This document shows, piece after piece, positions 16,827 to 43,961 of a stretch of 52,514 bases of DNA. Source of the DNA: Patescibacteria group bacterium (GTDB lineage: Bacteria; Patescibacteriota; Patescibacteriia; GWA2-46-9); NCBI GenBank assembly GCA_041675205.1, contig JBAYUF010000002.1, positions 134,568-187,081 on the forward strand, written 5' to 3'. The translations under genes and the position numbers were made by a program. Numbering within the stretch: the first letter of the stretch is position 1; every line of letters starts with the position of its first letter. Under the pieces are notes generated by a model. It ran no database searches. It saw only the letters and a program-made list of their open reading frames with translations, and was not told the origin of the DNA.

Positions 16827-17019
16827 CCCTTCTTTTTTTAAATCTCACCGCTCGTTGTTCCTGGTGCAGCGACTCGTCGACGCCTTGCGCGTCGCGGTCG
16901 CTGCAGCGGGTGGAACGGATAGCAACTTGAAAATTTCATAGTCCAATGCAAGCACACGGATGAAGACGCATCTTCACATAGATTAATTGCAGTTTTACTG
17001 GATGCTGATGAATATCAGC

Positions 17020-20156
<3,137 letters not shown>

Positions 20157-20255
20157 GCTGATGTGCGTCCACATCCAGCATGACTGTAATTTTTTTGATG
20201 CGTCAGACAGACGCGTGCTTGCATTGTGTTTTCACTCCAGCCGTGGGCTGCAGTG

Positions 20256-20364
20256 TCCTGGTGCTTCTAGCGGTGAGGCCACACCTGTTCCCATTTCGAA
20301 CACAGCCGTTAAGCTCACCAGCGCCGATGATACTCTTTCAGGGGAAAGTAGGTCAGCGCCAGGA
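20256..20364 (+). rRNA. rrf: 5S rRNA (~109 nt)
   Basis: TCCTGGTG..CACCTGTTCCCATTTCGAACACAG..CGCCGATG..AGTAGGTCAGCGCCAGGA, flanked by an extended stem gtgggctgca/tgcagcccac. Confidence 0.95.
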
Positions 20365-38795: not shown

Positions 38796-39404
38796 ATGGG
38801 CAAAAAATATCCACCCACTCCACCCGTCACTATTCCCGAAAAGCACGGTCTTTTTATGATTTACGAGGGACGAGGTAAAGGGAAGACTACGGCCGCTATT
38901 GGTATGGCCGTTCGGGCGCTCGGCACCGGCATGAATGTTTTCATCATTCATTTTATTAAGGGCGAATGGCCAAACGGTGAGCGAGACTTTTTTGCCGCCT
39001 ATGGCGAGCTACTACCGCTGTACAAAGGAAGCAAGAAACTTGGTCACGTTCATGTCGAGTCCTCCGGCAAGGGTTTTGTTAAAATTTTAGGAGATAAGAA
39101 GCCGATGCGTGTGCATAAAGACGCCGCCAAGCGTGGCCTAGCACGCGCTAAGCGTGCCCTGAAGAGTGGTGACTACCAGCTCATCGTTATGGATGAAGCA
39201 ATAAGTGCCATAGAAGAAAAGTTAATCACCGTGCAAGACCTTCTCGCAGTTTTGAAGGTTAAGCCGCCACTTACGCACCTTGTTATGACTGGGCATTTTG
39301 CGCCAAAGGCATTAGTTGCAAAAGCGGACTTGGTGAGCCGAGTCGATATGGTGAAGCATCCGTACTATAAAGGCATTTTGGCACAGAAAGGTATAGATTT
39401 TTAA
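38796..39404 (+). CDS. cobO: Cob(I)yrinic acid a,c-diamide adenosyltransferase (CobO/BtuR)
   Basis: YEGRGKGKTTAAIGMAVRALG, FIKG, MDEA, LVMTG, MVKHPY..GI.AQKGIDF. Confidence 0.92.
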   Translation: MGKKYPPTPPVTIPEKHGLFMIYEGRGKGKTTAAIGMAVRALGTGMNVFIIHFIKGEWPNGERDFFAAYGELLPLYKGSKKLGHVHVESSGKGFVKILGDKKPMRVHKDAAKRGLARAKRALKSGDYQLIVMDEAISAIEEKLITVQDLLAVLKVKPPLTHLVMTGHFAPKALVAKADLVSRVDMVKHPYYKGILAQKGIDF

Positions 39405-40645: not shown

Positions 40646-41013
40646 CAAGTGAGTTCTTAACTCTCCGAGGATCGAGAGCGTGGAAAAAAAGGTCGCACTT
40701 CGTGCGTACCCGTTTCCGCGTCTTCACGCGGTTTTTTCATTACTGCGGCTCTTCGAGTTGTGAATTCACACCTGGATATGGTGACTTTTGTGCGCCTTGC
40801 GCCTTGATAGGCGCAGCTGCGCCTAGGTCACCGAAATTTGGCAGCGGGTGAATCATTAAATCCCGCACACCACTATCCAGAAAGAGGCCCCTTCTAGCAC
40901 ACCCACCCACCCACCTTTCCTTTCTTTTCTTTCTTTTCTTTTAGTGCGTATGGGGTCTTCTTTCTTTTCTAACGTTTTTCAATACGTTTAAGCGAGTCTT
41001 GTCGTTTACGAAA

Positions 41014-41041
41014 TTGACAGCCCAAAGCATTTTGCTACTAT
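41014..41041 (+). promoter_or_regulatory. sigma70 promoter of the T-box leader
   Basis: TTGACA (41014-19), 16 nt spacer, TGc-TACTAT extended -10. Confidence 0.8.
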
Positions 41042-41057
41042 CCAATTACAATTCAAA

Positions 41058-41274
41058 AAGCGTTGATGGAGTTGACACTCCGGAGCTGCAGGAAGAACCT
41101 CTTGAAAGAGATAAGTAGAACCTTGCCGGGAATTCCCGTTATAGAATAGAGGTGTCCTAATTAGAGGGCACTGATAAGCTTAGACAGGCGACTGTCTAAG
41201 AAAACAGAGTGGCACCACGAGTAACCTCGTCTCTGTCTATCCAGAATTTTTATGGATAGAGACTAGGTTTTTTT
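41058..41274 (+). ncRNA. T-box riboswitch (Asp, ultrashort stem I) with intrinsic terminator
   Basis: K-turn-like GCGUUGAU/GGAGC base with GGAG-UUGACA-CUCC hairpin; stem II with GAA/AGUA; IIA/B pseudoknot (CGG-GAAUUC-CCGUUA..GAAU); antiterminator AGAG-UGGCACC-ACGAG-UAAC-CUCGU-CUCU; terminator plus U tract. Confidence 0.88.
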
Positions 41275-41293
41275 GTTGTCTTCATTTATGCGT

Positions 41294-42460
41294 ATGTTTG
41301 CCAAACGAATAGAACAACTTCATTCTTCACCAACATTAGCGCTGGAAGAGAACGTGAGACTTTTAGAGTCCCATGGAATTAGTGTCGTGAATTTAGGCAT
41401 TGGTGAACCAGATTTTGGTACTCCCTGGAGTATTCGCTTTGCAGCAATTGCTGCCATAGTGAAGGGGTTTACGCACTACACCGCCACTAGTGGCATCGTT
41501 GAATTGAGGACGGCAGTGTGCAAAAAACTTTTTGATGAAAATAAAGTTTTCTATCACCCAAGTGAAATAGTTATTGGGGTGGGAACGAAACAGTTGCTCT
41601 ATCACGCGTTTCAAGTACTTTGTGACAGTGGAGACGAGGTTATTGTGCCCGTGCCCACATGGAGTACGTATGCGGAACAAGTACGACTGAGCGGCGCAAC
41701 ACCCGTCTTTGTTACCCTAGAACCACCCTTTCGTTTAACCGCGGCCGCTCTAGAAAAAAGTATTACTTCAAAAACAAAAGCAATTGTATTAAATAGTCCA
41801 GCTAACCCAACCGGGGCGATTATAGAAGAAGAAGAATTGATAAAAATAGCTGAGATTGCCGTAGAAAAAAATATAATCGTTATTTCTGACGAAATCTACG
41901 AGAAAATTATATTCGGGCGTAGACATGTATCAATCGCATCTCTCAATGAAGAGATAAAAGCACGTACTGTAACGATAAATGGTTTTTCAAAAAGTTATGC
42001 CATGACCGGTTGGCGGGTTGGTTTTGCTGCTGGGCCAAAACATATTATCGATGCCATGGTTGCCCTGCAAAGCCAAACAACCTCAAGTACGTCGTCTATT
42101 TCTCAGAAAGCCGCCTGTGCGGCGCTGACTCATCCGCAAAAATCAGTTGAGGCGATGCGGACGGTCTACCGTAGCCGTCGTGATTTTTTGGCAGCAGCAC
42201 TGGCCAAGACTCCACAGCTATCGTTCACGCTTCCTGATGGTGCCTTCTACTTTTTTGTCGATATCAGCCCGCTGCTTGGAAAACAGTTTCAGAGCGCAGT
42301 GGCCTGGTGCCAAGCGTTACTTGACGAAGAACGAGTTGCTGTCGTTCCAGCCGAAACTTTCCTTTATAAAAATTATATTCGTTTAAGCTTTGCTGTACCC
42401 ATCGAGGAATTACAGGAAGGGATAAAACGTATTGAACGGTTTGTAAAAAAGTATGAATAG
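41294..42460 (+). CDS. aspC: Class I PLP-dependent aminotransferase (aspartate aminotransferase-like)
   Basis: GIGEPDF, YTATSG..ELR, NSPANPTG, SDEIYE, NGFSKSYAMTGWRVG; the start may be 41288 or 41294. Confidence 0.9.
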   Translation: MFAKRIEQLHSSPTLALEENVRLLESHGISVVNLGIGEPDFGTPWSIRFAAIAAIVKGFTHYTATSGIVELRTAVCKKLFDENKVFYHPSEIVIGVGTKQLLYHAFQVLCDSGDEVIVPVPTWSTYAEQVRLSGATPVFVTLEPPFRLTAAALEKSITSKTKAIVLNSPANPTGAIIEEEELIKIAEIAVEKNIIVISDEIYEKIIFGRRHVSIASLNEEIKARTVTINGFSKSYAMTGWRVGFAAGPKHIIDAMVALQSQTTSSTSSISQKAACAALTHPQKSVEAMRTVYRSRRDFLAAALAKTPQLSFTLPDGAFYFFVDISPLLGKQFQSAVAWCQALLDEERVAVVPAETFLYKNYIRLSFAVPIEELQEGIKRIERFVKKYE

Positions 42461-43961
42461 AAAGATTCCAGCCACCATGGTTTCACAACACCCAGATCAA
42501 GCTGGTACGCCTTATTGGCATACCGAAGCGTTTATTAGTACGCAACAGGAAACACATGAGTGCTTCCTTTCTTTTTCCGAGCTCGGTGTCTCAGAGTACA
42601 AATGGGATTGGGAAGGCAAATTTGTCGATGAATCGGTCATTGAACGTTTGTTGGCGGAACATCTCGAATACTTTAAAAATTTTCCCCTGGGTAAAGATAA
42701 GTTTTTAACATTTCGTCTTCCAAACCCAAAGGTGGAAACAGAATTTCGTTTGGGTAGGGCATTCATGGGCATTTTGGGCGCGGCTGGTCTAGCAAAAGAA
42801 GTTGGTCTTCACGCTCCGCCCTTATTTGAAGTCATTTTACCCATGACAGAGTCAGCCGAAGAGATGATTGCCATTCAAGAATCGTTTAAAGAGTTGGCGT
42901 CGTTAAAACATCCGCTGCACAACTTCGAGAGAGGTGGCCTGACCCATATTGAACTTATCCCACTTTTTGAACAAGTCGATGTTATTATCGCGTCTGCTCA
43001 TATTTTGGAAACGTACTTGGCACTTCATGAGCGAATCTTTCATTTTACACCAGCGTACATTCGGCCGTACCTCGCCCGTTCAGATCCAGCATTGAATTCC
43101 GGATTAGTGCCAACCGTACTGGCCATAAAAATTGCTTTGTCTCGTTATCAAGAGCTTGAACAGAGAACTGGGGTGCGGCTGTACCCAATCATCGGTTCAG
43201 CTTGTTTGCCATTTCGTGGGGGACTAACACCCGATACAGTGGCAGAATTTTGTCACGAGTATCGAGGTATAAAAACTGCGCTTTTGCAAAGTGCTTTTCG
43301 GTATGATTTTGACAAAAAAAAGGTTCTCGAAGCAATCCGCCTGCTCGAAACGATGCTCCCCTTAGGCGAGGCAGCAACGATTACGCCATCGGAAGAACAG
43401 AAGCTACTAACGCTCATTACATACTTTGAGGGGGCTTACCAGCGAACGGTTGAGGGCATTGCGCCAATTATCATGCAGGTTGCTTCTGCGTTGCCACGAC
43501 GACGGGAGCGAGTGCAGCATATTGGTCTTTTTGGTTATTCACGGAGTCTTGGAAAAGTGCAACTGCCTCGTGCCATAGGTTTTACTGGTGCGCTGTACTC
43601 ACTTGGCGTTCCGCCGGAACTCATCGGCACTGGTAGGGGAATAAAGTATGCTGAGGAAAATATGGGCGTGGACTTGCTAGAGAAGTATTATATTGGTCTG
43701 CGGCGTGAGCTGAAACGAGCCGGTGGCTTTTTGTGTAAAGAAGGATTGGCACGTCTGGCAACATTGTCTCCTGAATGGAAAGAGGTTGAGCAAGATGTTC
43801 AGTACATAGAAGCGTATCTTGGGGAACGTTTAGGACCTGTTACCAAAGACGAAATTGAGCACGCGAATATTGTTCAAAAGGTGCATGCTAGACTAGAGGC
43901 CGGTGAGTCATTTGAAGAGTATTTACAACCGTTGGCAGTGCTTCGAAAGAGTATAGGCTAG
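42453..43961 (+). CDS. ppcA: Archaeal-type phosphoenolpyruvate carboxylase
   Basis: IPATMVSQHPD, WDWEGK, TFRLPN, EVILPMT, IPLFE, ARSDPALNSG, PFRGG, QSAFRYD, LFGYSR, LPRAI.FTGALYS.GVPPE. Confidence 0.95.
   Translation: MNRKIPATMVSQHPDQAGTPYWHTEAFISTQQETHECFLSFSELGVSEYKWDWEGKFVDESVIERLLAEHLEYFKNFPLGKDKFLTFRLPNPKVETEFRLGRAFMGILGAAGLAKEVGLHAPPLFEVILPMTESAEEMIAIQESFKELASLKHPLHNFERGGLTHIELIPLFEQVDVIIASAHILETYLALHERIFHFTPAYIRPYLARSDPALNSGLVPTVLAIKIALSRYQELEQRTGVRLYPIIGSACLPFRGGLTPDTVAEFCHEYRGIKTALLQSAFRYDFDKKKVLEAIRLLETMLPLGEAATITPSEEQKLLTLITYFEGAYQRTVEGIAPIIMQVASALPRRRERVQHIGLFGYSRSLGKVQLPRAIGFTGALYSLGVPPELIGTGRGIKYAEENMGVDLLEKYYIGLRRELKRAGGFLCKEGLARLATLSPEWKEVEQDVQYIEAYLGERLGPVTKDEIEHANIVQKVHARLEAGESFEEYLQPLAVLRKSIG

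Follow-up and report, generated by a model that had tools for sequence, protein, structure and literature searches.

The leader described here, which has a very short stem I, lies on the forward strand of a 52,514-nucleotide stretch of Patescibacteria DNA, the whole of which we call the window. Judged from its sequence, it is a genuine T-box (a tRNA-sensing RNA switch), and we consider it very probable that it is an Asp T-box, specific for tRNA-Asp, which governs by transcription attenuation an aspC-ppcA operon leading from phosphoenolpyruvate (PEP) through oxaloacetate to aspartate. All the sequence and structure parts of such a switch, the covariation of its helices and the agreement between codon, discriminator base and downstream gene were observed directly.

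A permissive Rfam scan of positions 40900–41400 gave a match to RF00230 (T-box) at 41054–41237 (+), with 57.1 bits and an E-value of 6.6e-12, that spans all model positions from 1 to 219 and is hence an end-to-end match. In the Rfam alignment, 4 nt of stem I stand in place of 74 consensus positions, and it is this replacement that keeps the match under the Rfam gathering score (93 bits); a default scan at that score reported no T-box in the window. The preliminary description had listed the T-box parts in order behind a promoter of their own and had proposed a comparison with RF00230. All these parts, including the promoter (Table 1), are indeed present, and the comparison returned the match just given, though one under the gathering score. 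The whole leader is also more stable than shuffled sequences (fold z = -3.9), and both RF00230 and our model R2 (see below) find this copy as the only T-box of the host genome.

The preceding transcription unit is closed by a terminator at 40716–40731, so that the leader has its own promoter. This upstream terminator, a hairpin followed by T6, comes after a weak match to the AdoCbl riboswitch aptamer (RF01482, 40555–40689 (+), 25.7 bits, E 0.016, gathering score 50), with a corrinoid adenosyltransferase gene further upstream at 38796–39404. There is no gene between the terminator and the T-box promoter, an interval that contains a C/T-rich simple repeat at 40900–40965 (CCCACCCACCCACC, then TTTCC/TTTCT units).

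Table 1. Features of the T-box leader and its operon, in window positions.
Feature	Positions	Strand	Evidence
Sigma-70-type promoter, TTGACA-16-TACTAT with TG extension	41014–41041	+	10/12 matches
T-box leader core, from K-turn to end of antiterminator	41054–41237	+	RF00230; own models R1 (216.6 bits) and R2 (169.2 bits)
Ultrashort stem I module, 27 nt: base helix GC/GC, K-turn, 5-bp stem, 6-nt loop UUGACA	41060–41086	+	Rfam alignment, covariation
Specifier GAC (Asp), penultimate triplet of the loop, then the usual purine (A at 41077)	41074–41076	+	Sequence, loop-codon rule
Stem II: S-turn-type purine strands GAAGAA and AAGUAGAA, upper helix with GAAA loop	41088–41126	+	Rfam alignment
Stem IIA (CGG/CCG), F-box-like CCCGUUA, IIB pseudoknot	41127–41147	+	Covariation
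Additional 8-bp linker hairpin separating IIA/B from stem III	41151–41172	+	Fold; kept in orthologues
Stem III, 9 bp, GCGA loop	41179–41200	+	Fold
Antiterminator: helix A1 of 6 bp, 7-nt bulge, helix A2 of 5 bp	41204–41236	+	-10.5 kcal/mol
Intrinsic terminator: 5+12 bp hairpin (41223–41269), loop (41241–41251), U7 tract (41268–41274)	41223–41274	+	-20.9 kcal/mol
aspC-like class I aminotransferase, ATG at 41288 or 41294	41288–42460	+	Pfam PF00155, E 3.6e-79
ppcA, archaeal-type PEP carboxylase, 8-nt overlap with aspC	42453–43961	+	PF14010, E 9e-127

The 5' half of the leader is strongly reduced. At the base of stem I a K-turn is formed by GA (41065–66) with GA (41083–84), giving the pairs G12.A31 and A13.G30 beside a 3-nt bulge, an assignment made at the sequence level only, and above it GGAG/CUCC closes the apical loop UUGACA. 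What stands between the K-turn strands is a closed stem I hairpin of 16 nt, which lacks the distal loop (interdigitated T-loops) as well as the AG bulge. A stem I of about 27 nt with GAC in its terminal loop had been proposed, and both points are confirmed. A conventional long stem I was considered as well and is ruled out, stem I being closed between the K-turn strands and the promoter leaving only about 10 nt upstream of them. Downstream, the IIB pseudoknot pairs AUUC (41132–41135) with GAAU (41144–41147).

The 3' half carries the complete switch. The T-box bulge is the 7-nt UGGCACC at 41210–41216, and both it and the competing terminator with its U tract stand where the preliminary description had placed them. 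Within the 5' arm of the terminator (41223–41240) lie the 3' strands from both helices of the antiterminator (41226–41236), and the two outer A-U pairs of the terminator hairpin take the first two U of the U7 tract. Terminator and antiterminator are mutually exclusive and the terminator is the stronger (about -21 vs. -10.5 kcal/mol). Nothing like a Shine-Dalgarno sequence was seen in the switching helix, nor at a distance of up to 20 nt from the two ATGs. The terminator-type output that had been claimed thus holds, since the hairpin overlaps both antiterminator 3' strands and runs into U7 with no Shine-Dalgarno sequence in the helix.

The two genes behind the leader, an aspartate-aminotransferase-like enzyme and an archaeal-type PEP carboxylase, are those expected from the earlier claim that the operon makes Asp from PEP, and their predicted products together fit that route. 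The best NCBIfam match of aspC is aspartate aminotransferase, at 386.6 bits, under the 550-bit equivalog cut-off, and ppcA matches TIGR02751 with 458 bits, over its cut-off of 146. The start taken by the ORF tool for aspC, a TTG at 41273, falls within the U tract; the ATGs lie 14 to 20 nt past it. The aspS gene of the host has no T-box.

Regarding specificity, the host genome has a single tRNA-Asp(GUC) (contig C4, 43932–44007), with G73 and no encoded CCA, whose anticodon pairs with GAC and whose discriminator base pairs with the C of UGGC. The loop offers the triplets UUG, UGA, GAC, and ACA, of which GAC alone corresponds to a tRNA carrying G73. The alternatives UUG (tRNA-Leu, A73) and ACA (tRNA-Thr, U73) were rejected as specifiers, their discriminator bases being a misfit to UGGC. 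The tRNA-Asn of the host has G73 as well. The genome encodes bacterial-type AspRS, LysRS, and GatB, and a tblastn search of it found no AsnRS; with GatB present and AsnRS not found, tRNA-Asn is probably charged through Asp, as Asp-tRNA(Asn). A tRNA-Asn(GTT) called by ARAGORN outside the window (C2:117428–117523) measures 96 nt, vs. 73 nt for the copy on contig C1, and may hold an intron or be a miscall.

We found three T-box-aspC-ppcA operons, the one in the window and two orthologues. The first (L195, genome G112, same class as the host) has the loop CUGACA and the bulge UGGC, an aspC 50% identical to that of the window and a ppcA 60% identical over 99 aa. The second (L028, on a 3.2-kb MAG contig) has the loop UUAACA, again with UGGC, and an aspC 56% identical that is followed by ppcA. 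When the three leaders were aligned with plain, unfitted MAFFT, 98.3% of the cells were paired and 14 of the 42 pairs had changed on both sides, compared with 1–4 changed pairs and 34–44% pairing in slid controls of the same alignment, so the covariation across orthologous leaders that the element should show is there. The changes on both sides include all three pairs of the stem II upper helix, five pairs of stem III and four of the antiterminator, and one pseudoknot pair is A-U, C-G, and G-C across the three orthologues. The linker hairpin stands at the same place in all three with unrelated sequences, its structure being conserved, and the terminator and U tract are also common to all. In L195 (positions 700–775) the ATG of aspC adjoins the terminator U tract and a GAGG is found in the terminator 3' arm, 6 nt upstream; this helix could stop both transcription and ribosome binding.

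The expectation that homologues would keep GAC was borne out in part: L195 retains it, while L028 has AAC at the same loop position, a change of one base. We explain the AAC by the probable charging of tRNA-Asn via Asp, and read it as a coherent swap to an amino acid that depends on Asp here and not as a refutation. Other relatives manage without the switch. Among about 160 loci with aspC relatives, from named genomes and metagenomes, a T-box was present only in L028, and the ppcA loci of three genomes (G004, G029, and G047) were likewise without one by Rfam (E up to 0.1). Two of these genomes, G004 (same family as the host) and G047, carry aspC-ppcA without a T-box, and inspection by eye of the 870-nt gap upstream of the G047 aspC also revealed none. 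At a further locus (L115), with aspC-ppcA or a close aspC homologue, there is no T-box and a tRNA gene stands in its place. As close relatives carry aspC-ppcA without it, T-box control is dispensable.

The host assembly consists of 1.15 Mb in 36 contigs at 100% completeness, and its phylum mates all have genomes of 0.6–1.7 Mb. Ribosomal protein L30, present in 13 of 14 control genomes, is absent from it, and the 23S rRNA (17019–20159) is 3141 nt long vs. 2925 nt for the model, with several inserted blocks (e.g., of 60 and 67 nt). The small size at full completeness, the missing L30 and the 23S insertions fit Patescibacteria and agree with the probable CPR (candidate phyla radiation) host proposed from the letters. 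The window also has a 5S gene (20257–20364) after the 23S, and no 16S gene.

Searching relatives with RF00230 recovered T-boxes in 20 of 61, mostly short and sub-threshold. MAFFT misaligned the 5' modules of eight divergent leaders, and a covariance model seeded from the two closest orthologues was used instead. Model R1, run with filters off, missed two leaders (L006 and L014) and misaligned another (L019); for model R2, 12 well-aligned members were used, excluding L008 and L202 (misaligned in the A7 alignment) and L200 and L207 (without a standard stem II). R2 has full-length matches in 137 of the 401 genomes that we sampled across Patescibacteria. On these matches the pairing of a minimal stem I with a terminator is widespread in Patescibacteria, and the suggestion that such an architecture is unusual for the host does not hold.

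Across 29 aligned phylum members the stem I module measures 26–33 nt (median 27), with an A after the codon in 25 and the NGA...GA pattern of the K-turn in 22. Changes on both sides were seen in 35 of 38 pairs of a 16-member alignment, which is model-fitted and thus leans towards the model. Of 36 leaders whose downstream genes were annotated with NCBIfam, 35 have a penultimate loop triplet that suits the gene; the exception (L236) precedes a gene without a match at the E cut-off of 1e-90, and L008, whose gene belongs to no family, was left out of the count. These codons are GAC or AAC before aspS, GUC before valS, AUC before ileS, CCC or CCU before proS, UGC before cysK-like genes, and ACC before thrS, and the last base of the UGGN bulge tracks the expected discriminator base. 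The Asp specificity claimed at the outset is therefore supported by the penultimate GAC, by the fit of G73 of tRNA-Asp(GUC) to UGGC and by the same rule in the relatives. A hairpin with a U tract ends every one of the 26 new phylum loci that were examined. The nearest non-orthologous matches of R1, at 74–75 bits, are aspS leaders with GAC (L196 and L013) and a valS leader (L197).

Two other groups of leaders came up in this survey. The aspS leaders found phylum-wide (L211–L235) are short-stem-I T-boxes with GAC or AAC depending on the genome and with UGGC or UGGU bulges, and they precede aspS genes of two types, non-discriminating archaeal and bacterial. A second minimal layout (L009, L010, L011, L017, L018, L020, L025, and L027) has ACC in the loop of a short stem I and UGGA, apparently has no S-turn stem II, and in most cases precedes thrS, as confirmed by NCBIfam for L010 and L011 and judged by eye for the others.

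Putting these parts together, transcription would begin about 10 nt upstream of the K-turn, and the 27-nt stem I would offer the GAC of its apical loop to the GUC anticodon. Stem II, with its S-turn, and the IIA/B pseudoknot would then dock on the codon-anticodon duplex, by analogy with the solved ultrashort-stem-I ileS T-boxes, and this docking would stand in for the absent distal platform of stem I, which normally stacks on the tRNA elbow. With uncharged tRNA-Asp, the 3' GCCA would pair with UGGC and stabilize the weak antiterminator, allowing readthrough into aspC-ppcA; with the tRNA charged or absent, the stronger terminator would form and transcription would stop at the U7 tract. Uncharged tRNA-Asp thus probably turns on the two-gene aspartate operon; tRNA binding, sensing of its charge and termination in vivo at the window leader are what we infer from this arrangement. 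If the minimal form does function at a terminator, this would go against the view in the field that a long stem I is generally needed (PMC7583486).

Other explanations of the same leader have to be weighed. A translational switch like the actinobacterial ileS T-boxes, with the apparent terminator being in fact a sequestrator helix, would agree with the translational nature of all the ultrashort-stem-I T-boxes described previously (review PMC7583486), and the GAGG in the terminator 3' arm of L195 could mask a ribosome-binding site. Nevertheless, we regard it as quite improbable, as the hairpin in the window leads directly into U7, neither the helix nor the 20 nt before the ATGs offers a Shine-Dalgarno sequence to be sequestered, and hairpin and U tract are kept together in all three orthologues as well as in the 26 phylum loci newly examined. 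The leader might instead respond to tRNA-Asn, either in place of tRNA-Asp or in addition to it. For this to be so the GAC of the window would need a G.U pair with GUU at the first codon position, when Watson-Crick pairing of the specifier is what T-boxes prefer (TBDB paper, PMC7778990), and L195 also has GAC; these points make it very improbable despite the AAC of L028, the interchangeable use of GAC and AAC by the aspS leaders of the phylum and the G73 shared by both tRNAs.

The sub-threshold Rfam score, together with relatives whose aspC-ppcA has no T-box, could also suggest a decaying, non-functional remnant that has lost the distal half of stem I. Against such decay, all helices and the pseudoknot are maintained by compensatory changes, neither promoter nor terminator is damaged, and 137 of the 401 genomes have the same stem I module of 26–33 nt, its codon in agreement with the gene behind it, so that a remnant appears to us extremely improbable. 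The reading that we prefer remains that of a tRNA-Asp-specific, terminator-wired T-box.

Taking the window and the phylum together, we lean slightly towards a broader reading, in which a phylum-wide class of Patescibacteria T-boxes would attenuate transcription without contacting the tRNA elbow, using only a 26–33-nt stem I, stem II and IIA/B. The only copy in the host would have moved from the control of a synthetase to that of the PEP-to-aspartate module, one base would be enough to toggle its amino-acid address from Asp to Asn or back, and the linker hairpin might give a substitute contact with the tRNA. If true, such a class would contradict the view that co-transcriptional sensing needs a long stem I to capture the tRNA elbow fast. 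The rule in the field is that a minimal stem I suits only slow, reversible translational control, and a large natural family wired to terminators would put this rule to the test. Standard annotation misses minimal T-boxes because they score under the Rfam threshold, and in consequence amino-acid regulation would be under-counted in the candidate phyla radiation. Since the single T-box of the host would guard the route from PEP to aspartate, the supply of this amino acid, on which Asn-tRNA probably draws as well, appears to be a point at which this very reduced metabolism is controlled. At about 180 nt, minimal T-boxes are also possible parts for engineered tRNA sensors.

According to a 2020 review, transcriptional T-boxes generally need a long stem I with an elbow-binding motif for fast capture of the tRNA, and intermediate and ultrashort stems I are assigned to translational, mostly actinobacterial T-boxes (PMC7583486), in agreement with the preliminary description, which held that ultrashort stems are best known from translation-regulating actinobacterial leaders. 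The translational model of TBDB was built from Actinobacteria only (PMC7778990). Full-text literature searches combining T-box with Patescibacteria or candidate phyla radiation gave nothing relevant, and an earlier mention in primary T-box papers is possible.

The closest known counterparts of the 5' half are the ultrashort-stem-I ileS T-boxes of Mycobacterium and Nocardia (Sherwood et al., 2015; structures 6UFG and 6UFM, as cited in PMC7583486). The window leader has in common with them the K-turn with a short hairpin, the specifier in the apical loop, the purine after the codon, the S-turn stem II and the IIA/B pseudoknot, as well as the lack of the elbow-binding double T-loop motif. The actinobacterial leaders combine a Shine-Dalgarno sequestrator with AUC and ileS, whereas the window has a terminator and U tract, GAC and a biosynthetic operon, in addition to a Patescibacteria host and the extra linker hairpin. 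With the canonical RF00230 T-boxes (Bacillus subtilis tyrS and glyQS) it shares K-turn, stem II, IIA/B, stem III, the UGGN antiterminator, the competing terminator and, as predicted for the window, the uncharged-tRNA logic, but about 70 nt of the canonical stem I are missing, comprising the specifier internal loop, the AG bulge and the elbow-stacking distal loop. The other terminator T-boxes of Patescibacteria (aspS, valS, ileS, proS, thrS, and cysK-like) have the same architecture and follow the same penultimate-triplet rule; unlike these, which mainly precede synthetase genes, the T-box of the window would control aspC-ppcA and is the sole one of its genome. The leader unites a 3' half like that of the canonical transcriptional T-box with a 5' half like that of the actinobacterial ultrashort form, one defining feature of each being missing.
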